Of a DNA stretch of 64,000 bases, positions 6,663 through 58,864 are shown piece by piece. The DNA comes from Xylanimonas sp. McL0601 (GTDB taxonomy: Bacteria; Actinomycetota; Actinomycetes; Actinomycetales; Cellulomonadaceae). The notes beneath the pieces are model-generated. The model had not been told where the DNA came from. It saw nothing but the letters and a program-made list of their open reading frames with translations, and searched no databases. Positions within the stretch are counted from its first letter, which is position 1. Every line of letters starts with the position of its first letter. The stretch is from NCBI RefSeq assembly GCF_049852175.1, contig NZ_CP187527.1, positions 181,104-245,103 of the forward strand, given 5' to 3'. The position numbers were made by a program, and so were the translations under genes.

Positions 6663-7085
6663 ATGACCCGCCGTCTGGGCGGCCTCGTGCTCGGCTGGAC
6701 GCTCGTCGTGCTGGGCGTCGCGGCACTCGTTCTTCCAGGACCGGGACTGCTGCTGCTCGCGGGCGGGCTGGTGGTGCTGTCCCAGGAGTACGAATGGGCG
6801 GAACGCCGCGTCGAGCCCGTGCGGGCCAAGGCCTTCGAGCTGGCGCAAGCAGGCGTGCGGGACTGGCGAAGCGTGGCGTTGAGCCTTGTCCTGGCATTGG
6901 GGCTGATCGCGCTCGGCGTGATCTGGGGGCTCGGCCCGCCCGCGCCCGACTGGTGGCCGCTCGAGGAGCGGTGGTGGCTCCCGGGCGGCTGGGGCACGGG
7001 GTCGAGCCTGATCGGATCGGGGCTGATCGCCCTCGGGCTGCTGGTCTACAGCTATCGCCGGTTCCGGGGTGACGCGGCGCGCTGA
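6663..7085 (+). CDS. PGPGW-domain small membrane protein
   Basis: LVLPGPGLLLLAGGLVVLS motif, two TM pairs, W-rich C-terminus. Confidence 0.7.
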   Translation: MTRRLGGLVLGWTLVVLGVAALVLPGPGLLLLAGGLVVLSQEYEWAERRVEPVRAKAFELAQAGVRDWRSVALSLVLALGLIALGVIWGLGPPAPDWWPLEERWWLPGGWGTGSSLIGSGLIALGLLVYSYRRFRGDAAR

Positions 7086-7126
7086 CGACGTGTCGAGCTG
7101 GCCGGGATCGAGCCGCGCCGGTGCTG

Positions 7127-8560
7127 CTACCTCAGCCGCCTGTAGGTCGTCGTGCGCCCCTTCCCGCCGATCTGTTCGACGAGCCCGGCTTCGCGCAGGG
7201 AGCGCAGCGTCTTGCGCAGCGCGGGCGCGGACTTCCCGGTTCGCTCGGTGAGTTCGTGGATCGTCACCGGTGCGCCGCCTAGCGCTTCGATCACCGCCCG
7301 CTCGGCCGGTGTTGGTGACCTGGCGCCGAGGTTTGATGTCGTCGCGGCCGTCTGCGGCGCCGAGCGCAGGATGGCGGTGAATGCGATGCCTTCGTCATTG
7401 AACTGTGGCTCCCGGAGCCCTGCCTCGGCGAGCGTGCGCCGCACGGTTGCGATCCCGGTGGCAAGCAGCTCGACGACGCGGGCGTCCGTTGGCGTGCGGG
7501 CGTAGCGGCAGATCTCCACGAGTCTGCCGTTGCGCGCCGAGGTCGCGTCGGGTTGTCCCAAGCGGTCGACTGTGAGCCCGTACAGCCCGCCCGGATTCGT
7601 CACCACGAGCCGGTCGGGAAGGAGCCTGACCTCGATCGCCCGCCCCTGCGACCAGGCATCCAGGTCGCGGTGGATGAGCGCGTTCGAGATCAGCTCGCGG
7701 AACGCTTCCAAGGGGTAGGCCCACTGGTCGCGGACTGCTCCGGCGTCGTCGGCGACAACGTGTTGGGGGAAGTTGGCGCGAGCCCAGGCGACCGACTCCT
7801 CGAGCATCACCGGGATCGGTCCGGTCACGGTACGCGTTGCGGACGCGCGCACCCCGGGGCGGTCGACGACGGCGAGGTTGACCACGAAACGCTCGAAGAA
7901 TTGTTGGGGATGGACTCCTAGCGCGAGGAGTCCTGCCGTTGTGACCTTGCCATCGGGAGTCACAATTCCCGCCCGGACCACCCGGTCCTCGGGAGTGAAC
8001 CGGCCCAGACCAGCCGGATCACGCTCGACAACGGTGCGGTGCCACACCCCCAGGAGCTCCAGATCGAGGTCAGCGATCGCTGCCCCGGACACGGGTACAC
8101 GATCCGCGCGCGGTTGCTCGCGCTGGCGCAAGAAGCCCTGGACCTCGACGTCGGACATCCGGAAATCGCCGTCCCAATTGCGCAGCCAGGCCTCACCCGT
8201 TGCCCGCACCCGCGCGGGCTTCGCTGACGGCGGGCACTCGGGGACCCGGGCGACCACGACCGCCTCGCCGTCGAGGTCCACCTGGCGGATTTCCAACGTG
8301 ACCGGCGGCTCGAGCGCCCGCGCCACGCCAGCGAGACCTTGCTTGATCGCCTGGGGGTGCATCAGCCCGGAGGGCCTGAAGCCCGCGCGCTCGTCCAGTC
8401 CGAGCACGATTCGCCCACCGCCAGGCAGGTTCGCCAAAGCGCACAGAGTCCCGGCGAGATCGGTCGGAAGGCCGCCAGCCGCAGACTTCACCTCGATGTC
8501 CGAGGTGTCGCCACCGTTGCGGCGGAGGAGGTCGAGGATCTCAGCAAGCTCAGGGTCCAC
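7127..8560 (-). CDS. ATP-binding protein with Schlafen/AlbA_2-like N-terminal domain, HATPase_c_4 domain and C-terminal winged HTH
   Basis: DIEVKSAAGGLP (AlbA_2-like E..K motif), ELISNALIHRDLDAWS...VTNPGGLYG (HATPase_c_4-like), C-terminal HELTERTGKSAPALRKTLRSLREAGLVEQ wHTH. Codon third positions clearly less GC-rich than neighbours (aat gta act gga caa ...). Start set at GTG 8560; ORF extends to 8842 but that part overlaps repeat A and a terminator hairpin. Confidence 0.65.
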   Translation of the reverse strand: MDPELAEILDLLRRNGGDTSDIEVKSAAGGLPTDLAGTLCALANLPGGGRIVLGLDERAGFRPSGLMHPQAIKQGLAGVARALEPPVTLEIRQVDLDGEAVVVARVPECPPSAKPARVRATGEAWLRNWDGDFRMSDVEVQGFLRQREQPRADRVPVSGAAIADLDLELLGVWHRTVVERDPAGLGRFTPEDRVVRAGIVTPDGKVTTAGLLALGVHPQQFFERFVVNLAVVDRPGVRASATRTVTGPIPVMLEESVAWARANFPQHVVADDAGAVRDQWAYPLEAFRELISNALIHRDLDAWSQGRAIEVRLLPDRLVVTNPGGLYGLTVDRLGQPDATSARNGRLVEICRYARTPTDARVVELLATGIATVRRTLAEAGLREPQFNDEGIAFTAILRSAPQTAATTSNLGARSPTPAERAVIEALGGAPVTIHELTERTGKSAPALRKTLRSLREAGLVEQIGGKGRTTTYRRLR

Positions 8561-8565
8561 GAACC

Positions 8566-8603
8566 AAATGTAACCCCGGAGAGTTACATTTTCGGTTACA
8601 TTT
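8566..8603. promoter_or_regulatory. AT-rich operator-like inverted repeat AAATGTAACC-N18-GGTTACATTT immediately upstream of the 7127..8560 gene
   Basis: Perfect 10-bp inverted repeat in an unusually AT-rich stretch for this genome, positioned just 5' of the GTG start on the minus strand. Confidence 0.4.
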
Positions 8604-8711
8604 CGCCGCAAGGAGCGCAATTGCAGGGCTGAAGGTCTCCCGAAGCACAGGGACAGTGCCCAGGACGCCTGAGGAATGGTGCCCACAACGCGCCCCACGG
8701 CCAACAACAAA

Positions 8712-8845
8712 GGCCCCGGAATTGTTGGACTTCCAACGATTCCGGGGCCTTGCTCACGTGGGAGGTTTCCGAAACACCCTGGCCTCCATGAACACGACCG
8801 TTTCAGGATGCCCAGGCACACCTCAACCAGTCCTCCAGGCACATC
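8712..8845. repeat. Repeat copy A: GC hairpin (8712..8749), CTCACGTG core, GGAGGTTTCCGAAA, GCCCAGGCACA, CCTCCAGGCACA
   Basis: Shares about 95 bp of conserved blocks with copy B (14000..14090). Hairpin ggccccggaattgttgga/tccaacgattccggggcc followed on the minus strand by a T-rich run (terminator-like). Confidence 0.6.
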
Positions 8846-9046
8846 TACTCGTCGCCGTGCCCCTACACGCCTCGCGGAACTGGCTGGGCCCCGCTCGGCC
8901 GCGACGATTCGATGCGTAATCCGGGAGGCTCCCGTCTAGCAGGTCGGGTCCGGGTTGCCGCGGCCATGGCTGCGGCACCCGGTCCACACCCGGGCGCGAC
9001 GTCCCGGGTTCCCGTCCATCCCACCACCATCGAAAGAAGGTTCCTG

Positions 9047-9949
9047 ATGACCCACGCTGTCGCTCTGACCGGTTTCGGCAATCCTGAGGTGCTGCGGCCC
9101 ATAGACGTCGCGGTGCCGGATCCAGGTCCAGGCCAGATCCGTGTGGCCCTGCGACTCGCCGGCGTCGGCCCGACCGACCTGGCGCTGCGGTCCGGGAGGC
9201 TCAAGGCCTTCGGCGTCCAGGAGGGCACGTTGCTCGGGTTCGAGGGCGCGGGCACCGTCGAGTCCGTCGGGGCCGGCATCGACGACGTCGCGCCCGGAGA
9301 CGAGGTGGCGGTCTTCCTGCCCGGCGTCGGCGGTTATGCGGAGCTCGCCATCGCCGAGTTCTGGGTCCGCAAGCCCGCCACCGTCTCCTGGGAGGACGCT
9401 GCCGCACTGCCCGCGTCCGGCGAAGCCGCCGTCAGGGTCCTCGACCAGGTCTCGGTGGCCGACGGTGACACCCTGCTGGTGCTTGGCGCAGCGGGTTCGG
9501 TCGGCACCATCGTGACGCAGCTCGCCATCGCCCGCGGTGCGACCGTGATCGCTGCTGTACGACCGGCGGACTTCGAGACCGTGAAGGGCTTCGGTGCGGT
9601 TCCGGTGGCCTACGGAACGGACCTCGTGGCGAACGTGCGCGCCCGTGCTACGCACGTCGATGCGGTGGTCGACGCCGGAACCCACTCAGATCTCGGGGCT
9701 GCGGTCACTCTGACTGGCGGCCCTGAGCGTGTCGTCACCCTGACCGGCTCGAGCGGAGCTGCGCTCGGCGTGCGGTTGTCCGGCCCGGAGCCGGACGGAA
9801 TCTTCGACGCCCTGTCTGAAGCGATGAGCCGTCTTGCCGACGGACGCCTGGTCCTCCGGTCACGGACCGTGATCCCTCTCGACGCAGCGGCCGAAGCGCA
9901 CAGGCGGCTCGAAGCGGGCGAACGGTCGAAGTTCCTGCTCGTTCCCTGA
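9047..9949 (+). CDS. zinc-binding alcohol dehydrogenase / NADPH:quinone oxidoreductase (MDR family)
   Basis: MTHAVALTGFGNPEVL..., GxGxxG-like LVLGAAGSVGTIVTQLA. ATG 9047 with GAAAGAAGG RBS. Confidence 0.7.
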   Translation: MTHAVALTGFGNPEVLRPIDVAVPDPGPGQIRVALRLAGVGPTDLALRSGRLKAFGVQEGTLLGFEGAGTVESVGAGIDDVAPGDEVAVFLPGVGGYAELAIAEFWVRKPATVSWEDAAALPASGEAAVRVLDQVSVADGDTLLVLGAAGSVGTIVTQLAIARGATVIAAVRPADFETVKGFGAVPVAYGTDLVANVRARATHVDAVVDAGTHSDLGAAVTLTGGPERVVTLTGSSGAALGVRLSGPEPDGIFDALSEAMSRLADGRLVLRSRTVIPLDAAAEAHRRLEAGERSKFLLVP

Positions 9950-10092
9950 CGCTCGCCGCTGATCCGCCCGGGGGTTTCGTCGTCCTCCGGGGCGGCCCCG
10001 GGCTGCTGGGCCCGGTCAGATGTCCACGGCTCCGGCGCTCTGGCGCTGAGCCAGGCGGAATAAAACCCGCGGACGGTGACGCTTGGCCCGGC

Positions 10093-10503
10093 ATGAGCGA
10101 CTGGAACGCCGACATCATCGAGGAGTTCCGCGCGAACGAGGGCCGAGTGGGCGGCCCTTTCGAGGGCGCGAACATGATTCTGATCAGCACGGTCGGGGCG
10201 CGGACCGGAGCCGTCCGCACCACCCCGGTGGTCTACTTCCCGCAGGAGGACGGTTCGATGCTGATCGTCGCATCCAAGGGCGGCGCACCGACCAACCCGG
10301 ACTGGTACCACAACGTGCGCGCGAACCCGGTGTTCGAGGTGGAGGTCGGCGCCCGGCGCTTCGCGGTGGAGGCGGCCGTACTCACGCCGGAGGAGCGTGC
10401 CGTGGCGTGGCCACGCATCGTCGAGGCCGCGCCCGGGTTCGGCGACTACCAGAGGAAGACCGACCGCATCATCCCGGTCGTCCGGCTCACACCCAAGGAC
10501 TGA
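10093..10503 (+). CDS. deazaflavin (F420H2)-dependent nitroreductase family protein (DUF385/Ddn-like)
   Basis: 136-aa protein with NADIIEEFRANEGRVGGPFEG, GARTG, PDWYHNVRANP motifs characteristic of the family. Confidence 0.7.
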   Translation: MSDWNADIIEEFRANEGRVGGPFEGANMILISTVGARTGAVRTTPVVYFPQEDGSMLIVASKGGAPTNPDWYHNVRANPVFEVEVGARRFAVEAAVLTPEERAVAWPRIVEAAPGFGDYQRKTDRIIPVVRLTPKD

Positions 10504-10782
10504 CGCTGCGCCCGCGCCGCAGGCCCACAACGGACGGCGCCACGCCACCCCTATAGGTGCCGCAGCACCACCCCGGAACGCAGAAGGTCCCGGCCAGCAG
10601 CGCACCTCTGCGCCATCGTCGCCGTCGACCTCGACCTCGATGACGGGCAGCCGCCGCGGCCGTCGCTGCTCCGGAGCGAGATGCGAGAGTCGAGATTTCG
10701 GCATCTCCTATGACAGTTCGCTGAGCGATGGTGCATGGCGGCAGCCGGCCGCGCGGATATCACCCCATAGGAGGCACTCCCC

Positions 10783-12366
10783 GTGTCAAAGCGCATCCCC
10801 ACCCTCGCTGTCGCCGCAGCCCTCGCCGTCGCGAGCGCGATGGTCCCCGCGGGCGCGGCCCTCGGTCATCCAGGAGGATCACATTCCGGCGACCATCCCT
10901 CGACGATCCCCGGTGGGTTCAAGCACCTCGTCGTGATCTACGAGGAGAACCACTCGTTCGACAACGTCTACGGACGGTGGGGTTCGGTCGCCGGCGACGC
11001 CGTCAACGGCGCCCGCAGCGTGCCGCAGGTCACGCAAGACGGTACGCCGTACAAGTGCCTGCCCCAGGTAGACGTGAACCTCGCGACGCCGCCGCTGACG
11101 TCGGTGTGCGAGGACGCCGTGCACGGCATCGCGGCCAGCCACTTCCCCAACCACACGTTCACGATCGACGACTACATCGCTCCGAGCGATACGACCTGCC
11201 CGCCGGCCGTCCCGGGCACGCCCTACCAGCCGAACGGATGGCTGAAGGGCACCGGCGCGCCCGGCGGCTGCACACGAGACCTCGTCCACCGCTTCTACCA
11301 GGAGCAGTACCAGCTCGACGGCGGCCGCATGGACCGGTATACGACCGGGTCAGACGCGGTCGGACTCACCCAAGGCCAGTACGACACGACGAAGCTCCCG
11401 ATCTACCGGTACCTCCACAGCGTCGGTGCGCCGCACTACGTGATCGCCGACGACTTCTTCCAGGCGGCGTTCGGTGGCTCGTTCCTCAACCATCAGTGGC
11501 TCATCGCCGCGCGGACGCCCCTTGACACGTCCGCGACGGTCGCCAACTCGGTGCTCGACGGCAGCGGGATGCCGACCAGCTACCCGCAGTACACGGCGAC
11601 CGGGGCGGTGAAGGACACTCAGTGGACGGTGGCATGCCCGAGTGCGGGCAACGACTACGCCGCCGCTTGCGGGAACTTCGCCGTGAACACGATCCAGCCG
11701 GAGTCGGCTCCGCATAGCGGCGGCGCGCAGCTCCCGCTCATCGACGACCGCGTCTACCCCAACATCGGCGACCGGATGTCGGCGGCCGGGATCTCGTGGA
11801 ACTGGTACGCGGGTGGCTGGGACGATGCGGAGGCCGGGCACCCCGGCGTCAACTTCCAGTACCACCACCAGCCGTTCAACTACTTCGCCGCCTATGCACC
11901 CGGGCGGCCGGGCCGCAGCCACCTGAAGGACGAGAAGGACTTCATCGCAGCGGCAAAGAACGGGTCGCTGCCCACGGTCAGCTTCGTGAAACCGTACGGC
12001 GACGAGAACGAGCACCCCGGCTACGCCAGCGAGCCGGACGGCAGCGACCATCTGGTTGACCTGCTGAGGACGATCACGAACGGTCCTGACGGCAAGAGCA
12101 CCCTCGTCGTGGTCACCTACGACGAGTTCGGCGGTCAGGCAGACCACGTCGCACCGCCCGTGGTGGACAAGTGGGGTCCTGGCACCCGCATCCCGGCCCT
12201 GCTCGTGAGCAAGAAGTTCGAGTCCTCCGGGGTCGACCACACGCGATACGACACCACGTCGATCGTGGCCACGATCGAGAAGGCGTTCCACCTCCATCCG
12301 CTCGGCACGCGCGACGCCTCGGTGAACCCGCTGTTCGCCGGCATCCGCATCGGCACGGACGGCTGA
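10783..12366 (+). CDS. secreted phosphoesterase-family protein (phospholipase C / AcpA-like)
   Basis: Signal peptide, HLVVIYEENHSFDNVYG N-terminal catalytic motif and TYDEFGGQADHV C-terminal motif. Confidence 0.75.
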   Translation: MSKRIPTLAVAAALAVASAMVPAGAALGHPGGSHSGDHPSTIPGGFKHLVVIYEENHSFDNVYGRWGSVAGDAVNGARSVPQVTQDGTPYKCLPQVDVNLATPPLTSVCEDAVHGIAASHFPNHTFTIDDYIAPSDTTCPPAVPGTPYQPNGWLKGTGAPGGCTRDLVHRFYQEQYQLDGGRMDRYTTGSDAVGLTQGQYDTTKLPIYRYLHSVGAPHYVIADDFFQAAFGGSFLNHQWLIAARTPLDTSATVANSVLDGSGMPTSYPQYTATGAVKDTQWTVACPSAGNDYAAACGNFAVNTIQPESAPHSGGAQLPLIDDRVYPNIGDRMSAAGISWNWYAGGWDDAEAGHPGVNFQYHHQPFNYFAAYAPGRPGRSHLKDEKDFIAAAKNGSLPTVSFVKPYGDENEHPGYASEPDGSDHLVDLLRTITNGPDGKSTLVVVTYDEFGGQADHVAPPVVDKWGPGTRIPALLVSKKFESSGVDHTRYDTTSIVATIEKAFHLHPLGTRDASVNPLFAGIRIGTDG

Positions 12367-12477
12367 GACCCGATCGGGTAATGAGGCGGATGCCGCGATC
12401 CAGCGGGTCGCGGCGTCCGCTTGTCTGCACCACTGCCATCAGGACTCCTCGCCGAATGCGACGAGACCTCACCCTCG

Positions 12478-13830
12478 TGGCGGTACCCAGGGCCTCGGCG
12501 TTCTTAACCGTTCTGTTATCTGACCAGGGCGAACGCTTGCGCGGGGTCTCGTGCGAGGGCGCGGAGTGCGGCGGCGATGTTGGTGTGGCCGGCGAGGCGC
12601 AGGACGCTGATGGCGAGGTTGCGGATGGTGGCGAGCACGGCGGGTAGATGGCCGGTGCGGGCCTGGTGGCGGTCTTCGTCGAAGGTGACGTCGCGGACCC
12701 AGTGCAGGCGGTTCTCGATACCCCAGTGCCCGCGGATCGCGTCGGCGAGCTCGGCTGCGGTGGTCTGGTCGTAGTCCAGGGAGGTGATCAGGTGCACGGT
12801 CTCGACTCGCCAGCGCCCGCCCTTCTTCACGCGGCGGATCAGGCGCAGCGCCTGCTTCGCGCCGGGGAAGTCGATCGGGGTGTGCGGGATCACGGCGCGC
12901 AGGATACGGGTCTCGAGGCGGCCGTGGCCCTTGCCGCGGGTGACGTCGATGTCCGGCACGTGCGGCCAGGGCAGCGCCTTCAGGGTTGCGAGCAGGGTGG
13001 GCTGGTTGCCCTTGACGGTCATGACGTAGTGGCCCCCGCGGCCGGTCAGCCAGGCGGCGTGGGCGCGCTGGGTGTGCAGCGCGTCGGCGGTCACGAGCAC
13101 GCCGGCGAGGTCGAAGCGGTCCAGCAGCCGCGGGATCGCGCCGATCTCCGAGTCGGCGCCGCCGTCCTTGCCCGCTACCTGCACCTGCCCAATGACCGTG
13201 CCGGTGGCGTGGTCCAGAGCGGCGACCACGTGGGCCTGACGGGTCTTGCCGCCGGTGCGGGTGCGGGCGCCGCGGATCGTCTTGCCGTCCACCGCGAGCA
13301 CTCGCCGAGCACCAGGGGCAGGCACGTGCCGGGTGGCGAGCCAGGCACCGACGACCTGGTCGAGGACGCCTGGCTCCACGCGGCCCAGCAGCCGGCGCAC
13401 CGTCGTCTCCGACGGGCGACGCGAACCGGTCAGCCCCGCATCGTGAACCACCCGCGCGGGCGCGGCGGCGAGCCACTCGCTGATCTCGGTCAACGTCTTG
13501 GCCCCGGCCAGGACCGCGCAGACCGTCAGCGTGAGCACGCCGGCCAGCGGGTAACGGCGGCCCTCGCGGCGACGAGGATCCACCACAGCGCCGAGCGCAG
13601 CGGCCAGCCCGGGCGGAACCTGATCACCAGCCGGGACCTCGTGGCCAGCCGGCACAGCAATGGGCAAGGATGAGGGCACGGACGCGGCACCAGCTTCCGG
13701 ATGTCGATCGGTGTAGGAACCTCGATCATCCCGCAGGTGCCGCGTTCGCCTGCATCTACACCACTACGCCCGATCTGTCACGGGTTATGCCCACCATCCG
13801 AGAACGCCGGAGCCCTGTGGCGGTACCAGT
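12478..13830 (-). mobile_element. ISAs1-family insertion sequence with imperfect terminal inverted repeats
   Basis: Left end GGTACCCAGGGCCTCGGCGTTCT (12482..12504) matches the reverse complement of the right end (13803..13828, GGTACCGCCACAGGGCTCCGGCGTTCT). Contains a single transposase ORF. Confidence 0.65.
12516..13679 (-). CDS. ISAs1-family (H-repeat-associated, DDE) transposase
   Basis: 387 aa; LAGVLTLTVCAVLAGAKTLTEISEW, VDGKTIRGA, HWGIENRLHWVRDVTFDEDR motifs typical of ISAs1 transposases. Confidence 0.7.
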   Translation of the reverse strand: MPSSLPIAVPAGHEVPAGDQVPPGLAAALGAVVDPRRREGRRYPLAGVLTLTVCAVLAGAKTLTEISEWLAAAPARVVHDAGLTGSRRPSETTVRRLLGRVEPGVLDQVVGAWLATRHVPAPGARRVLAVDGKTIRGARTRTGGKTRQAHVVAALDHATGTVIGQVQVAGKDGGADSEIGAIPRLLDRFDLAGVLVTADALHTQRAHAAWLTGRGGHYVMTVKGNQPTLLATLKALPWPHVPDIDVTRGKGHGRLETRILRAVIPHTPIDFPGAKQALRLIRRVKKGGRWRVETVHLITSLDYDQTTAAELADAIRGHWGIENRLHWVRDVTFDEDRHQARTGHLPAVLATIRNLAISVLRLAGHTNIAAALRALARDPAQAFALVR

Positions 13831-13925
13831 CCCGCCAAACGAGCCGGTGGACCGGGTCGCGATCGCGCTCGCCAGCTACTTCTGACGTCGGCTTTGACAG
13901 GCTCAACCACGGTCTGGGCGGTCCG

Positions 13926-14090
13926 GAAACGACGAGACCCCCGGCCGGATCAACCGGCCGAGGGTTTCGGCAACAGGATCGCTTTCCACTGGAACGTCCC
14001 TCACGTGGGAGGTTTCCGAAAAGCGATGGCCTGCGGCAGCACGAGCGCACCGAAGCGCCCAGGCACAGCCCGAGGACGCCTCCAGGCACA
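13926..14090. repeat. Repeat copy B (composite): left arm as in copy C with hairpin CCCCGGCCGG-ATCAA-CCGGCCGAGGG, CTCACGTG core, right arm as in copy A
   Basis: 13926..14007 is about 85% identical to 15132..15215; 14000..14090 matches the copy A conserved blocks. Confidence 0.6.
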
Positions 14091-14248
14091 CCCGGCGATC
14101 CCGGGCGGGCCACCCGTCACGTCCAGAGGCGTTCGATGGGAGCACATGGATCCGTCGCGAACTCCCGGGCGAGGGGCCACACCCCCGCGACGTCGTCGGG
14201 CCGAGCGCGGCGAACTATGAACCGGAGGGGAGCAGGCACGCGCACTGT

Positions 14249-15127
14249 CTACTCCCTCCGCAGCAGCTCCGCGGTGAGGCGGGTCCGCGTCAGCGGCAGC
14301 GTGGCGAGCGCAACCAGCGCGACGCCCGCGACGACCACACCCACGAGGGTCGCCCAGACCTGCGGCGCGACGATTCCCGTCACCCCCGTCAGATGGGCTA
14401 TGACCTGCACGGACAGCGCCCCGAGCGCGAGGCCTCCGGCGACGAGCGCCGGGAACATGACCTGGATCGTCTGGCCGCGCCGCAGCACGGACCCCGGCAC
14501 GCCGATCATCGCCTGGTGGGCGACGTTGCGTCGGCGTTCGCGTGCCCGGTCGACGGCCGCGAGCGCCACGGTGAGGACGGCGACGGATATCGCGATGGCG
14601 CCGACCCCGTAGACGACGGCGCGCACCTCGTGGAACGCGGTGAGCGCTTTCGCGGTGGGGTCGGTGGCGGTGAGTCCGAGGGCGTGGGCGCGGGCTTCGA
14701 CGGCTTGCAGGGCGGTGGGGCCGCCGTCGGCGACGACGTCGGCGCGCGTGAACGTGGAGAGCCCGCCGGAAACCCGTGCGGCGACGAGTGCCGCGGGCAC
14801 GAAAGCGACGGGGTCGCTCTGCTCGGGTGTTGTCCGGCCGTGCACGGTGATGGGTGTGCTCGACGGCGTGTAGGTGCCGGCGGGCGGGGCGTCGTCGGTC
14901 GATCCCAGGCGGACGTCGAACCGCTGCCCGACTGGCAGCGGCGCCAAGTGGTACGGCGTCGAGAATGCGGCGTCCCACCGGGTGTGGCGGTCGCCGGTGA
15001 CGATCCATGCGGGGGCGTCGTCGTCGCACCCGGCGACGTCGAACCCCTGGACCTGCTCGGTGAGAGCGAAGCTGTCCGGGGAGCGTTGCCGCGCGGTTCT
15101 GACGCGGCTCAGCGGCCCCTTGGACAT
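14249..15127 (-). pseudogene. 5'-truncated FtsX-family ABC permease fragment (C-terminal FtsX domain only)
   Basis: Three C-terminal TM helices and the FtsX-like loop (RNVAHQAMIGVPGSVLRRGQTI). The ORF opens inside repeat C next to tRNA-Leu, with no N-terminal domain and no partner ATPase. Confidence 0.4.
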
Positions 15128-15131
15128 CCCA

Positions 15132-15213
15132 GAAACGACGAAACCCCCGGCCGGATCAACCGGCCGAGGGTTTCGGCAACGGAACCGCCTCCCATTGGGA
15201 AACGTCCCTCACG
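15132..15213. repeat. Repeat copy C: left arm plus CTCACGTG core directly abutting the tRNA-Leu 3' end (doubles as the tRNA terminator hairpin)
   Basis: Identical hairpin CCCCGGCCGGATCAACCGGCCGAGGGTTTCGG as copy B; core CTCACGTG overlaps the tRNA discriminator region. Confidence 0.6.
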
Positions 15214-15297
15214 TGCGCGAGGGGGGAGTTGAACCCCCACGCCCTTTCGGGCACACGGACCTGAACCGTGCGCGTCTGCCTGTTCCGCCACTCGCGC
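15214..15297 (-). tRNA. tRNA-Leu (anticodon CAG)
   Basis: Reverse complement folds as GCGCGAG/CTCGCGC acceptor, D-arm TGGCGGAACAGGCAGACGCGC (E. coli tRNA-Leu-like), anticodon stem-loop CACGG-TTCAGGT-CCGTG, long variable arm, T-arm GGGGGTTCAACTCCCCC; 84 nt, no encoded CCA. Confidence 0.85.
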
Positions 15298-15611
15298 GTG
15301 CCGGAGCACAGTAGCACGGTGACGGGGGCGGTTCCGAATCGCCGTCGGCGACCCCCGAGGCCGTCGTCGCAGAGGGTCCCCACCGCACGTCGGCACCTCG
15401 ATTTCCCCCGACCGTACGCCAGTCGTTCACACGAATACGAGTCATCACCCTGTGCCGCTGCCTACGATCTAGGTAGTCTGCCCGCGGTGTTGCCCGTGCC
15501 CGGCGACCTGCGATGTCGGGCCCGCTCGGGTCCGGACACCGGCGCAGGGACCGGGCACTCCGGCGACAGACGGCACGAGACACGTGCGACGGGCACGCGA
15601 GAGGAGGTGGC

Positions 15612-31095: not shown

Positions 31096-31127
31096 GAAGG
31101 GCCGCTGACCAGCGTCAGCGGCCCTTC
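31096..31127. terminator. palindromic terminator GAAGGGCCGCTGAC-cagc-GTCAGCGGCCCTTC (copy 1 of 2)
   Basis: 14-bp perfect stem downstream of the flotillin gene; near-identical copy at 35030..35061. Confidence 0.55.
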
Positions 31128-31142
31128 TCGACGGTGGGAGCG

Positions 31143-35029: not shown

Positions 35030-35061
35030 CGAAGGGCCGCTGACCTGCGTCAGCGGCCCTT
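35030..35061. terminator. palindromic terminator GAAGGGCCGCTGAC-ctgc-GTCAGCGGCCCTTC (copy 2 of 2)
   Basis: Same stem as 31096..31127; lies between the peptidase gene and the tRNA-Ala 3' repeat. Confidence 0.55.
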
Positions 35062-35066
35062 CGTGG

Positions 35067-35106
35067 TGGTGAAGCCAAGGGGACTCGAACCCCTAACCCC
35101 CTGCTT
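35067..35106 (-). repeat. 40-nt direct repeat of the tRNA-Ala 3' end (attL/attR-type island boundary)
   Basis: tggtgaagccaaggggactcgaacccctaaccccctgctt matches 37186..37225 (tggtggagccaagg...ctgctt) with one mismatch, then diverges inside the anticodon stem. Confidence 0.65.
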
Positions 35107-35237: not shown

Positions 35238-37004
35238 TCAGGCCGTCGAGCGAGAGAGCCGGTACCTCCGACTCCTGCTCGTCGGCGGTGCGGTGGCTAC
35301 GATCGCACCCTCTGCCACGAGAACACGCAGTCGTGGGCGAAGCGACCCGGCGGTCGTGCCGAGTCGCTCCGCGATCTCGCGGACCGACAGCTCCGGTCCA
35401 GGGGTCAGCGCTTCGATGATCCTCTCGTCGAGGGTCCCCTCCGGTCGGATGTCGGCCACGGGCTCCGAGAAGAGGGTCTCGGCAGCCTCGAGGCGCTGAC
35501 CCTCGCGATAGGCGCCGTCCGTTCGCCGTGGGTACTGGAGCCATCCCTCGTCGACGAGCCCGCGGAGGACTGCCCTTGCGTCCGCGGAGTCAAGGGCAAG
35601 TTGAGCCCGCAGGACTTGGTCGTCGACCGCGTAGCCACGGTGAACAAGAACGAGCGCGCGTCGCGCGTCAGGCTCGAGCGAGTCGGCCCCGATGCTGGCG
35701 AGCCACTGATCGGTCTCCGGGTTGAGCAGGCCATGCCGATCCAGCACGACAGTCATCGAGGTCACGGAGGCGAGGTAGCGGGGCGCGGCGAGTCCCGCGC
35801 GCCCGAGCGCGCCCGTCATCGTCGGAATCCCAGATCCCGCGTTCTCGGACACGGACTCGTCACGGTCGAGCATCGGGACGTCGGCGAGCATGGCGGAGAG
35901 CACGGCGTTGCGGGAACGCGAGGACCCGTCGAAGAGATCGAGAACGCGGCGTCCACCCCAGATGCCTCCTGGGTTCGTGACCTCAAGACGATCGGGGTAC
36001 AGCTCCATGCGCACCTGATCTCCGAGTGCCCACGGGCTGTAGTCACGGTGCGTGAGCGCATTCGTGACAGCCTCGCGGATCGCCACCTCAGGGATCTCTG
36101 GTTCGTCACGAGCTCCAGCGCCGACGACGACGCGACGCACCTGGATGTTCTGCAGCACCGCCCGGACACAGTCGTCGACGATGGCCGGGATCGGGCCCTC
36201 GATCACCCGGCGGTCCAGCATGCGCGTCTCGCCGACGTAGACGTCCTTCGCCTTTCCTGGATAGACCGCGAACGTCACCATCGCCTGCGGGAGCGAGTGC
36301 TGCGGGTAGCGCCCAAAGGCGAGCAGTCCGGCAAGGGTGGGCGTCCGTCCGTCTGCCGCCAGCACGTTGTGGCGCTTCAAGATGTCGACCGTGGAAGTCA
36401 GGTCCGCAACGGATCGCGGGCGACGACGACGCAGCCGCGCGATGAACCGCTCCAACTGTTCCTTGTCAAGGTCGTCGAGGGACGCGCCACGGACAGGCTC
36501 GGTGTCGACACGCGGCTGCGCGCCGTCGGTCGAGAGCAGGAAGACGCCATAGGTACTCATCCGACGATCGCCGTCACCGACCCGCTCGTAGGTTCCGCCC
36601 TCCTTACCTTGCGTCGTCACGAAGGCGGGCTTCATCGCCGCCGGTAGAGGCTCAACGTCGGCGACGACGATCGAAGCATCGTCGACGACCGCGATGTCGA
36701 TTGAGCCAAGCGGCCGAGGGCTCACCGGGCCGGGCGACTCACCTCCACCACGAGGCCTGAAGCCTTCACTCAGGCCATCACGAATGGCGGCGGCGTCGAA
36801 ACCTTGCGTCGGAGCGAACCCGGTCGACTCGTCGAGCCCGAGGATGATGAGCCCGCCGTCGCCGTTGGAGAACGCGCTCACCGTCGGCCAGACATCCTTG
36901 GGGAGTCCTCCCGCAGCGTTCTTCACCTCGACGAACGAGAGATCCGTCGCCGCTGCGCGCAGTCGCGCAACGACGTGCTCGAGCGGACCCTGGCTCGTCT
37001 CCAT
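35238..37004 (-). CDS. ATP-binding protein with Schlafen/AlbA_2-like domain, HATPase_c_4 domain and C-terminal wHTH (paralog of 7127..8560)
   Basis: SFVEVKNAAGGLPKD, EAVTNALTHRDYSPWALGDQVRMELYPDRLEVTNPGGIWG, C-terminal SVREIAERLGTTAGSLRPRLRVLVAEGAI wHTH. ATG 37004 with GAGGG RBS; upstream ORF extension rejected. Confidence 0.65.
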   Translation of the reverse strand: METSQGPLEHVVARLRAAATDLSFVEVKNAAGGLPKDVWPTVSAFSNGDGGLIILGLDESTGFAPTQGFDAAAIRDGLSEGFRPRGGGESPGPVSPRPLGSIDIAVVDDASIVVADVEPLPAAMKPAFVTTQGKEGGTYERVGDGDRRMSTYGVFLLSTDGAQPRVDTEPVRGASLDDLDKEQLERFIARLRRRRPRSVADLTSTVDILKRHNVLAADGRTPTLAGLLAFGRYPQHSLPQAMVTFAVYPGKAKDVYVGETRMLDRRVIEGPIPAIVDDCVRAVLQNIQVRRVVVGAGARDEPEIPEVAIREAVTNALTHRDYSPWALGDQVRMELYPDRLEVTNPGGIWGGRRVLDLFDGSSRSRNAVLSAMLADVPMLDRDESVSENAGSGIPTMTGALGRAGLAAPRYLASVTSMTVVLDRHGLLNPETDQWLASIGADSLEPDARRALVLVHRGYAVDDQVLRAQLALDSADARAVLRGLVDEGWLQYPRRTDGAYREGQRLEAAETLFSEPVADIRPEGTLDERIIEALTPGPELSVREIAERLGTTAGSLRPRLRVLVAEGAIVATAPPTSRSRRYRLSRSTA

Positions 37005-37019
37005 GACACCCTCACTGTA

Positions 37020-37068
37020 GTTCACTGTCGTCACTACAGGTGTCACTGTAGTTGCGACATGAGGCAGG
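37020..37068. promoter_or_regulatory. operator-like palindrome ACTACAG-gtgtca-CTGTAGT flanked by CACTGTAGTT direct repeats, 5' of the island gene
   Basis: tcactgtagttcactgtcgtcactacaggtgtcactgtagttgcgac read directly upstream of the ATG at 37004. Confidence 0.35.
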
Positions 37069-37185
37069 CGCTGCACCAACCGCTGGTGCGTGCCCGCGTA
37101 CGGGTGGACACTGCGCCGCGAACATGGGGGGCGGACGTCTGACAAATACAGAAGGACCCGGGACGACGCATCATCCCAGGTCACG

Positions 37186-37261
37186 TGGTGGAGCCAAGGG
37201 GACTCGAACCCCTAACCCCCTGCTTGCAAAGCAGGTGCGCTACCAATTGCGCCATGGCCCC
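37186..37261 (-). tRNA. tRNA-Ala (anticodon TGC)
   Basis: GGGGCCATGGCGCAATTGGTAGCGCACCTGCTTTGCAAGCAGGGGGTTAGGGGTTCGAGTCCCCTTGGCTCCACCA; G3:U70 identity pair, encoded CCA. Confidence 0.9.
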
Positions 37262-54336: not shown

Positions 54337-54843
54337 ATGACGAACCCCACGCCGGAAAACGGGCTCGACCGCACCTCGCAGCTCGAGGAGGAGGGCGAGA
54401 TCGCTGCCGACTACCTCGAGGAGCTGCTCGACATTGCTGACCTCGACGGTGACATCGACATCGACGTCCGTCACGGACGCGCTGCCGTCGAGATCGTCGC
54501 CGAGGACAAGGGCTCGCTGAAGCACCTGGTCGGGCGCGACGGTGAGGTGCTCGAGGCCCTCCAGGACCTCACCCGTCTCGCTGTCCAGGCCCGGACGGGC
54601 GAGCGAAGCCGGCTCATGCTGGACGTCGCAGGCTTTCGCGCGCAGCGCCGTACCGAGCTGACTGAGATTGCCGAGAAGGCAGTGGCTCAGGTCAAGGAGT
54701 CGGGTTCGGAGGTCGCGCTCGACCCGCTGAACGCTTTCGAGCGCAAGGTCGTGCACGATGTCGTTGCCGCTGCAGGCCTGGCGAGTGACTCTCGGGGCGT
54801 CGAGCCCCAGCGGTATGTCGTGGTCCAGCCCGCCAGTGAGTGA
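54337..54843 (+). CDS. jag: Jag/KhpB RNA-binding protein (KH plus R3H)
   Basis: Acidic N-terminus, KH-like and R3H (LNAFERKVVHDVVAA) motifs. Confidence 0.75.
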   Translation: MTNPTPENGLDRTSQLEEEGEIAADYLEELLDIADLDGDIDIDVRHGRAAVEIVAEDKGSLKHLVGRDGEVLEALQDLTRLAVQARTGERSRLMLDVAGFRAQRRTELTEIAEKAVAQVKESGSEVALDPLNAFERKVVHDVVAAAGLASDSRGVEPQRYVVVQPASE

Positions 54844-54854
54844 CGTCGCGACGA

Positions 54855-54870
54855 CGTTTCACGTGAAACA
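54855..54870. promoter_or_regulatory. parS site 1 (cGTTTCACGTGAAACa)
   Basis: Match to the canonical tGTTTCACGTGAAACa parS palindrome. Confidence 0.75.
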
Positions 54871-54890
54871 CGACGGGCGGTGATCGCGAG

Positions 54891-55669: not shown

Positions 55670-55673
55670 CCGT

Positions 55674-55689
55674 GTTTCACGTGAAACAC
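55674..55689. promoter_or_regulatory. parS site 2 (TGTTTCACGTGAAACA, perfect)
   Basis: Perfect 16-mer. Confidence 0.8.
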
Positions 55690-55851
55690 CGTGGCGTCGC
55701 GACTCTGTCCACAGCGGAGTGGATTCCCGTGCGCCGCCGGTGCGAGGCCGTAGGCTGTGCGCGTGGCTGTGGCGCAACGCCGTAGATGCGCCCCTGACGT
55801 GCACGAACGGTCCCGCAGCCGAGATCGCCATCGACGAGAAGGACGTAGAGC

Positions 55852-58806: not shown

Positions 58807-58838
58807 TCGGGCGTGGTCGAGCAGATCGTGGCACGCCG

Positions 58839-58854
58839 TGTTTCACGTGAAACA
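58839..58854. promoter_or_regulatory. parS site 6 (TGTTTCACGTGAAACA, perfect)
   Basis: Perfect 16-mer. Confidence 0.8.
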
Positions 58855-58864
58855 CCGGCGCTGG

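Follow-up and report, generated by a model that had tools for sequence, protein, structure and literature searches.

We analysed a window of 64,000 nucleotides (nt) from Xylanimonas sp. McL0601 (contig NZ_CP187527.1, positions 181,104 to 245,103), the origin-proximal part of an actinobacterial chromosome (71% GC) carrying gyrB, gyrA, DUF3566, tRNA-Ile and tRNA-Ala, then FhaA/PstP and tRNA-Leu. One gene of this window, hereafter the target (7127..8560, minus strand; GTG start 8560-8558, stop 7129-7127), encodes a protein of 477 amino acids (aa) that combines a Schlafen domain, a GHKL ATPase domain and a winged helix-turn-helix (wHTH), and that is 100% identical to a database entry from the same organism annotated as 'ATP-binding protein'. 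A first-pass annotation made from the sequence alone had described the gene as one of two diverged paralogs of a horizontally spreading single-gene module, possibly autoregulated. Here we report the domains of the target, the three-site operator and probable leaderless promoter that precede it, and the distribution of the gene with its operator as a small cassette among homologs.

The three-part architecture was borne out by Pfam models for SLFN_AlbA_2, HATPase_c_4 and wHTH on the 477-aa open reading frame (ORF), and the motifs IEVK (22-25), SNALIHRD (292-299) and TNPGG (321-325) are present as noted in the first pass. The SLFN_AlbA_2 domain (PF04326; residues 19-134, 8159..8506, minus strand) scores 41.0 bits against a cut-off of 25.3 (E 3e-10), placing it above the gathering score for a prokaryotic Schlafen (pSlfn) domain. 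A candidate catalytic motif, D18-x4-E23-x-K25 (8486-8509, minus strand), is followed further along by the invariant pair D56/E57. The GHKL (Bergerat-fold) ATPase domain occupies approximately residues 280-400 (7361..7723, minus strand), with the HATPase_c_4 (PF13749) match covering residues 306-398 (E 2e-16, 60.5 bits, cut-off 26) and the characteristic residues E289/N293 in the N-box, HRD at 297-299 and NPGG at 322-325. The C-terminal domain is an ArsR/SmtB-like wHTH (residues 413-474, 7139..7324, minus strand; Pfam models HTH_20, MarR_2, HTH_5 and DprA_WH) with the recognition helix SAPALRKTLR.

Pairs of SLFN_AlbA_2 and PF13749 GHKL domains constitute the 'Schlatpase' supradomain, present in 60,692 of 103,533 prokaryotic Schlafen proteins, and most Schlatpase proteins end in a short HTH, which makes up >90% of their C-terminal tails (bioRxiv 10.64898/2026.05.29.728809). 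The target has both domains in N-to-C order together with the ATP/Mg residues and, judged by its sequence, is a member of the catalogued pSlfn 'HisKinase-HTH' or 'Schlatpase-HTH' class; HisKinase-HTH proteins account for 19.2% of 5,930 prokaryotic Schlafens and are the second commonest of 55 pSlfn architectures (PMC13056530). The family is large, with 5,307 clusters (50% identity) matching the target at E <= 0.001 and 421 at E <= 1e-30, and NCBIfam holds no full-length family for the target. The earlier statement that no mechanism had been assigned to this architecture is outdated for the SLFN and GHKL pair (bioRxiv 10.64898/2026.05.29.728809) and still holds for the form ending in an HTH.

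Across 25 aligned homologs E23, D56, E57, E289, N293, H297, R298, D299, P323, G324 and G325 are invariant, and the fuller set of D18, E23, K25, D56, E57, E289, N293, HRD and NPGG is invariant or nearly so when the target is included. A Dx4ExK motif was found in 193 of 202 clade members (115/120 and 78/82), and all but one of these 202 have the GHKL N-box (ExxxN...HxD). The spacing of the motif matches the published pSlfn catalytic consensus Ex4(E/D)xK (PMC13056530) but its first acid is Asp (D18); nuclease activity is a prediction. An AlphaFold model of the target (monomer, pLDDT 78, pTM 0.48) was matched by Foldseek to DIP2311 (3lmm, E 5e-20) and to 2kyy, histidine kinases, PDKs and ArsR/SmtB repressors, with the wHTH superimposing on SmtB, CzrA and ArsR at ~2 Å root-mean-square deviation (rmsd; probability 1.0). 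DIP2311 (E 6e-10) and the N-terminal domain 2kyy were also recovered by profile search.

On the coding strand the region ahead of the gene reads AAATGTAACC-ga-AAATGTAACT-ctccgg-GGTTACATTT-ggttc-GTG. With a GC of 0.40 vs 0.707, it exceeds every other 40-nt stretch of the window in AT content, and it contains the perfect inverted repeat AAATGTAACC (8566-8575)-N18-GGTTACATTT (8594-8603), exactly as the first-pass annotation had read it. That reading had missed a third copy at 8583-8591, and the conserved palindrome is the N8 pair formed with this copy. The operator is thus an array of three minus-strand sites, comprising an inverted proximal half-site GTTACATTT (8566..8574) lying 5 nt ahead of the GTG, its palindrome partner F2, AAATGTAAC (8583..8591), and an auxiliary outer direct copy of AAATGTAAC, F1 (8595..8603). 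The 9-mer occurs three times in the 64 kb, each time in the operator of the target, against an expectation of 0.29 and with 0 of 100 shuffles reaching three.

Promoters of actinobacteria have a TANNNT box at -12 to -7, and leaderless mRNAs are abundant in these organisms. In the target, the -10 hexamer TACATT (8567-8572) ends 6 nt ahead of G8560, leaving no space for a ribosome-binding site. Because this box falls within the inverted site, which stops 5 nt short of the GTG, the mRNA is probably leaderless, with a start at G8560 predicted from the spacing. A sigma-70 consensus scan returned 0 promoters; it demands a -35 box and is therefore uninformative for a leaderless promoter of the actinobacterial -10-only type. 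The forward repeats were considered as -35 boxes and rejected, their spacing to TACATT (~11, 21 or 32 nt) being unsuitable.

We fetched 80 genomic loci of the clade (46-76% identity, mostly Actinomycetota) and scanned upstream of the gene for GTTACATTT, allowing one mismatch. The inverted site was present in 61 of the 80 loci, which come from other genera, with the same array and spacing as in the target. It ends 4-6 nt ahead of the start codon in 53 of these 61, a forward copy begins 17-18 nt upstream of it in nearly all loci, and a second forward copy begins 27-29 or 38-39 nt upstream of it, which places this copy one or two helical turns beyond F2. The promoter windows contained 130 exact 9-mers, compared to 5 in all remaining sequence of these loci (1.46 Mb). 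Homologs with other repeat words (CCCATTT, AAACGCAAC, AAATGGG, ATGGACAGTTC) differ at the start of the recognition helix; a helix of the form P-[NTAS]-[ILV]-R was found in 53 of 58 loci with the canonical word vs 1 of 19 with other words (Fisher p 4e-12, not corrected for phylogeny).

A winged-helix fold together with a palindromic operator over its own promoter identifies the target as a predicted autorepressor. That the wHTH binds its own operator and represses its own promoter is the best reading of the comparative evidence, because the array and its spacing are conserved, the words covary with the helix, and the 9-mer is almost absent elsewhere. The suggestion of autoregulation made in the first pass is thereby strongly supported. 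The half-sites are ~17-18 base pairs (bp) apart and the auxiliary site is one or two helical turns off, which points to three or four subunits assembled on the DNA instead of a compact dimer of the ArsR type.

The same clear likeness of the wHTH to ArsR/MarR proteins, and the very existence of an operator, would also suit a protein acting mainly as a transcription factor, in line with the old COG2865 label 'putative transcriptional regulator', with the AlbA_2 and GHKL domains sensing a ligand or ATP and the wHTH controlling a regulon as well as its own promoter. When metagenomes were searched in the reverse direction, from the palindrome to the gene, the hits were overwhelmingly in AT-rich contigs, as chance alone could produce in so large a collection. 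The informative hits were the 14 contigs with GC >= 0.62, among which 9 had an intact gene abutting the palindrome, 1 a pseudogene and 2 were cut by contig ends. Three orphan palindromes with no gene beside them in high-GC contigs could mark such a regulon, as could a second array in Rugosimonospora africana, and the part of the present 3.9-Mb genome inspected for further sites was 64 kb. On the other side, the word is found nowhere else in the window and is all but confined to the gene's own promoter in the 80 loci (130 vs 5 copies). No neighbour is conserved and the gene is often alone in its insert, so the sole consistent target is the gene itself. The strong conservation of nuclease-type and ATPase residues is also more than a pure sensor requires, and we regard a role as mainly a transcription factor as unlikely.

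The R. africana array mentioned above (L008:9749-9807) consists of three forward and one inverted site 200-250 nt upstream of the normal array; it may be left over from an earlier copy or serve as an additional site of regulation. A metagenome contig (L204:2439-2464) has retained the operator with only 52 codons of the gene left.

Comparison with the closest relatives delimits the unit that travels. An 87% relative from a metagenome shares 86.5% nucleotide identity with the target over 1500 nt, while its flanks do not align. The homology (7112..8606, minus strand) begins 3 nt ahead of the first operator word and stops 15 nt beyond the stop codon, encompassing operator, promoter and coding sequence, and the same limits were seen in other pairs. 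The nearest homologs (87%, metagenome; 76%, Cellulomonas triticagri; 57%, Janibacter) have unrelated neighbourhoods with no synteny, and a relative that matches the target on its left side (NIF3, hydrolase, GNAT, LMWPc, NmrA and PGPGW) has unrelated genes beyond PGPGW. The target stands where synteny breaks off, and the stretch from there to tRNA-Leu is variable. Transfer as a unit of operator and ORF, as predicted from these alignments, is supported, in agreement with the single-gene module proposed in the first pass.

Among 78 homolog loci, 17 have the gene between direct repeats, compared to 0 of 134 shifted controls. These repeats are 36-266 nt long with 77-100% identity, and correspond to the 3' halves of tRNA-Arg, tRNA-Val or tRNA-Ala with terminators, the 3' ends of coding genes, or intergenic hairpins; C. 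triticagri and Pseudofrankia are examples with tRNA-Arg. The inserts span 1.56-2.08 kb and contain the Schlafen-ATPase gene as their sole gene with no recombinase inside; they share no conserved termini or inverted repeats. Nine of 80 loci have a tRNA no more than 400 bp from the gene, and in every case the gene is located 3' of the tRNA; this tRNA density is ~10x that of the rest of the flanks, although one of the nine, a 91-nt 'tRNA-Ala' call in L041, is doubtful by eye. No direct repeats were found flanking the target itself.

The second copy in the window (35238..37004, minus strand) encodes a protein of 588 aa with the same three domains in the same order and an extra wHTH, and aligns with the target at 33% identity over 489 aa (E 1e-50), confirming that the two are diverged paralogs. 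It has its own three-word array, ACTACAG / CTGTAGT / ACTACAG (37012-37052), directly ahead of its ATG. Two copies of the final 41 nt of tRNA-Ala, 2,119 nt apart, enclose the paralog and no other gene (the distal copy at 35066..35106, minus strand, pairs with 37185-37225 at 98% identity), and no integrase accompanies it. Neither copy qualifies as a tRNA-linked integrase island, the target having no repeats and the paralog having repeats but no integrase in its 2.1 kb.

The distal tRNA-Ala repeat differs by C71->T. One public assembly of this organism has the paralog islet as a separate contig of 2,145 bp, as expected since assemblies break at repeats; a look-up of the paralog for a strain-level empty site gave only this contig, and a look-up of DUF3566 gave nothing. 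A hairpin, GAAGGGCCGCTGACC(A/T)GCGTCAGCGGCCCTTC, occurs at 31096-31136 and 35031-35071 (3.9 kb apart, 88% identity over 41 nt), with one copy directly after the distal tRNA-Ala repeat; it may represent a terminator that has been used twice, or a further boundary of repeats.

We consider recombinases acting in trans the most likely cause of the spread as small inserts. Integrases are not among the common families of the 143 immediate-neighbour ORFs surveyed. In L017 (Nonomuraea), an element with a tyrosine integrase sits at the same tRNA-Val site as a cassette, and recombinases in trans at att hot spots are for this reason the most economical explanation of the tRNA cases. Insertion at sites other than tRNAs, and the extension of repeats into terminators, fall outside this account.

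It could instead be supposed that the gene is a selfish mobile unit whose nuclease, ATPase and DNA binder insert their own DNA at tRNA 3' ends, terminators and coding-gene 3' ends, as a homing- or transposase-like element producing long target duplications. The 17 loci and the paralog, each with a sole ORF in its insert, point in this direction, as do at least eleven different target sequences, the absence of recombinases from the inserts and of any common one among the 143 neighbours, and repeats that often include terminator hairpins and tRNA 3' halves. Such an element is hard to reconcile with binding sites at one end only, unconserved insert termini, imperfect repeats of widely varying length, and a target gene that has no flanking repeats at all. 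Moreover, the tRNA cases are explained by integrases in trans or by accretion at att hot spots, as illustrated by the integrase element of L017, and characterised Schlafen domains all cut RNA, not DNA. Self-insertion is thus very unlikely.

Further traces of mobility were seen in single genomes. In Nonomuraea sp. CA-141351 (L020:2085-11641) a decayed copy with its ORF truncated at 120 aa lies inside a 9.4-kb stretch rich in insertion sequences and bounded by 47-nt tRNA-Val repeats. In Frankia torreyi (L010) the cassette follows a 2,322-aa ORF whose last 147 nt recur on the far side of the cassette (9686-9832 vs 11512-11658; 96% identity, with a 79-nt exact core). A search for carriage of the target clade by phages or plasmids found only homologs of <=29% identity. 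One of these is gp31 of Mycobacterium phage Squirty (L090, 26096-27532; 26% identity), annotated as 'RecG-like DNA helicase' and located between an integrase (with an integrase fragment) and the RelA/SpoT-like gp29; a similar gene, numbered 38, is found in Gordonia phages. Temperate actinophages often have defence genes, expressed by the prophage, in this part of their genomes.

In its entirety, the evidence makes it reasonably probable that the target is a self-contained, horizontally acquired cassette combining a Schlafen nuclease, a GHKL ATPase switch and an ArsR-like wHTH, which is autorepressed and has a defence-type role. The wHTH on the three-site operator would repress its own leaderless promoter, and this autorepression would keep the amount of a potentially toxic enzyme low and constant wherever the cassette lands. 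In the SLFN-pAgo protein RzAgo, ATP binding leads the SLFN and GHKL domains to form a tetramer that pairs the Schlafen domains and cleaves tRNA, with residues E314 and N318 involved (bioRxiv 10.64898/2026.05.29.728809), and the E-D-K centre of Cash cuts tRNA loops (PMC13462974). By analogy with RzAgo and Cash, ATP-driven oligomerisation of the target may pair its Schlafen domains into an active endonuclease for tRNA (or RNA), which would stop translation in a response of the abortive-infection type. Operator and ORF would move together as a ~1.5-kb unit, often into small repeat-bounded inserts at the 3' ends of tRNA or other genes. A defence role is what we infer from the analogy with pSlfn proteins, which act in phage defence (PMC13056530).

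In a bolder version of this proposal, Schlatpase-HTH genes of the target clade would be 'plug-and-play' immune cassettes of ~1.5 kb, each with a leaderless promoter inside its own operator, that are independent of the insertion site and hop singly into the 3' ends of tRNA or other genes or into terminators. At its boldest, their own nuclease, ATPase and DNA binding would aid insertion, making them a new kind of recombinase-free mobile element, and ATP-dependent oligomerisation on the operator would couple dosage control to activation. We think this reading quite unlikely.

The surroundings of the gene bear on its function. No defence gene adjoining the target was identified within the window, and no gene is conserved beside its homologs among 143 immediate-neighbour ORFs from 75 loci. 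These ORFs were compared with PADLOC models at E <= 1e-10, a survey of immediate neighbours and not of a 10-kb radius, and on this measure the target clade is not located in defence islands. By comparison, 69.6% of pSlfns have a defence gene within 10 kb and 30.4% are not so linked (PMC13056530). The solitary place amid housekeeping genes, the unlinked 30.4% and the tight predicted autorepression of a probably toxic nuclease would fit an RNase that responds to stress or acts like a toxin, arresting growth under its own regulation and kept in the manner of a fused toxin-antitoxin, not for phage defence. A patchy, horizontally transferred distribution with tRNA-linked islets is nevertheless typical of defence or accessory cargo, and distant homologs lie in the accessory region of temperate actinophages, such as Squirty gp31 by its integrase and RelA/SpoT-like gene. 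Since characterised prokaryotic Schlafens all act in defence (PMC13056530, PMC13462974), we hold a stress RNase to be improbable and favour the autorepressed defence cassette.

Several observations weigh against this preference. Only ~7 of the 143 neighbours match PADLOC models (pPIWI_RE, PDC-S01, AbiEi, MTase III, DrmD and DRT), and the neighbours of homologs are mostly housekeeping genes, with MFS, NUDIX and hydrolases as the commonest families, vs the 69.6% of pSlfns overall that are defence linked. Two HisKinase-Slfn proteins tried in Escherichia coli gave no protection (PMC13056530). In PADLOC-DB v2 there is no full-length match to the target, the matches being a pAgo model over residues 121-398, an Aga_SIR2 model to the linker, and Csa3 and CasR to the wHTH alone. 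The first acidic residue of the nuclease motif is Asp, not Glu. As to autorepression, the transcription start site is placed by spacing alone, the covariation of helix and operator is confounded by shared ancestry, three palindromes in high-GC metagenome contigs are orphans, and the search for the operator word in this genome covered only the 64 kb.

The features next to the target in the window were located as described in the first pass. The PGPGW gene (6663-7085, plus strand) is its neighbour, and an ISAs1-type DDE transposase (12516-13679) lies ~4 kb away. 'Repeat copy A' (8753-8843, no strand assigned) is a ~90-nt element with 72.5% identity to 14000-14090 that is not tRNA-like and has no Rfam match. 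Adjacent to it is a hairpin with a 20-bp stem and 95% complementary arms followed by TTTGTTG on the minus strand (8710..8751, fold z -3.9), which looks like a terminator insulating the cassette against upstream transcription. Copy A and this hairpin fold well together on the minus strand (z -3.9) and could be a small RNA with its terminator, or a REP-like element.

Copy A belongs to a family of repeats of 75-120 nt and 72-80% identity, likewise not tRNA-like and with no Rfam match, that is spread from PGPGW to tRNA-Leu. Its pairs are 13889-14007 with 15094-15215, 14000-14090 with 8753-8843, and 9949-10020 (inverted) with 15098-15171, and the hairpin directly downstream of tRNA-Leu is a member. 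We considered whether repeats A and B are decayed att fragments of tRNA-Leu and rejected this, the alignment score being no better than for shuffles. An Rfam scan of 6900-15400 found the true tRNA-Leu only, which at 6.6 kb is the tRNA nearest to the target. Elsewhere in the window, the palindrome GTTTCACGTGAAAC occurs in three copies (54838-54885, 55671-55705 and 58824-58861); we take it to match the parS consensus, and its place beside origin-region genes would fit.

The GC content at third codon positions (GC3) of the target is 0.822 compared to a mean of 0.902 (sd 0.063) for the 42 other ORFs of the window (z = -1.3). The first-pass claims that it lies below any neighbouring gene, and that the target is the lower-GC3 paralog, were overstated, because 5 of the 42 ORFs are lower, including the adjacent ADH gene (0.79) and the tRNA-Ala paralog (0.784). 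Codon usage was discarded as a sign of foreign origin, being only mildly deviant and too weak for that purpose.

The architecture class of the target is already known, having been catalogued in 2026 papers. What this analysis adds is a conserved operator of three sites combined with a probable leaderless promoter, the covariation of this operator with the recognition helix, and the repeated occurrence of the gene as the only one in inserts that direct repeats enclose. Schlafen-GHKL-HTH is an abundant prokaryotic Schlafen architecture. For one large actinobacterial clade we can offer a testable proposal, namely that the HTH reads a three-site operator that doubles as a leaderless promoter, with the exact DNA word and the recognition-helix residues predicted and natural specificity variants available.

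Among known systems, the SLFN-pAgo protein RzAgo of Runella zeae also has an N-terminal SLFN_AlbA_2 domain followed by a PF13749 GHKL ATPase, with the E...N pair of ATP/Mg residues kept (E289/N293 in the target, E314/N318 in RzAgo), and the PADLOC pAgo model aligns with the target over the same residues 121-398. In contrast, the target has a 65-residue wHTH where RzAgo has an Argonaute sensor, so the guide RNA, target DNA and filament sensing of SLFN-pAgo cannot apply to it, and its tetramerisation and tRNA cleavage would be by analogy only. The pSlfn HisKinase-HTH class shares the domain make-up and the acidic-x4-acidic-x-K motif; unlike the class at large, the target begins this motif with Asp and its clade is not embedded in defence islands. 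The account of that class describes no operator, leaderless promoter or repeat-flanked inserts and names the HTH once (PMC13056530).

Cash (CRISPR-associated Schlafen) is likewise a Schlafen nuclease, with an E-D-K centre activated by oligomerisation, and the same paper also mentions Schlafen homologs with ATPase and DNA-binding parts (PMC13462974). Cash senses cA4 via Csx15 and is tied to type III CRISPR, whereas the target has no CRISPR, BREX or restriction-modification partner among its immediate neighbours. The sole solved structures with the architecture of the target are DIP2311 of Corynebacterium diphtheriae (PDB 3LMM) and the NE domain 2KYY, structural-genomics entries with no assigned function and only ~17% identity.

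The paralog and many homologs, lying between tRNA 3'-end repeats with no integrase, presumably resemble integrase-less att-flanked islets of the CIME-like kind; an integrase-bearing element using the same site in L017 is a further resemblance. They differ in being one-gene inserts whose repeats reach into terminators and occur at non-tRNA sites too, and the target itself has no repeats. With ArsR/SmtB and MarR autorepressors, the target shares the winged-helix fold (~2 Å rmsd to SmtB, CzrA and ArsR) and a palindromic operator over its own promoter. The target shows no obvious ArsR dimerisation helices or metal sites, its half-sites are ~17-18 bp apart and a third site is phased with them; from these differences, the DNA-binding unit is probably set by the ATPase oligomer.

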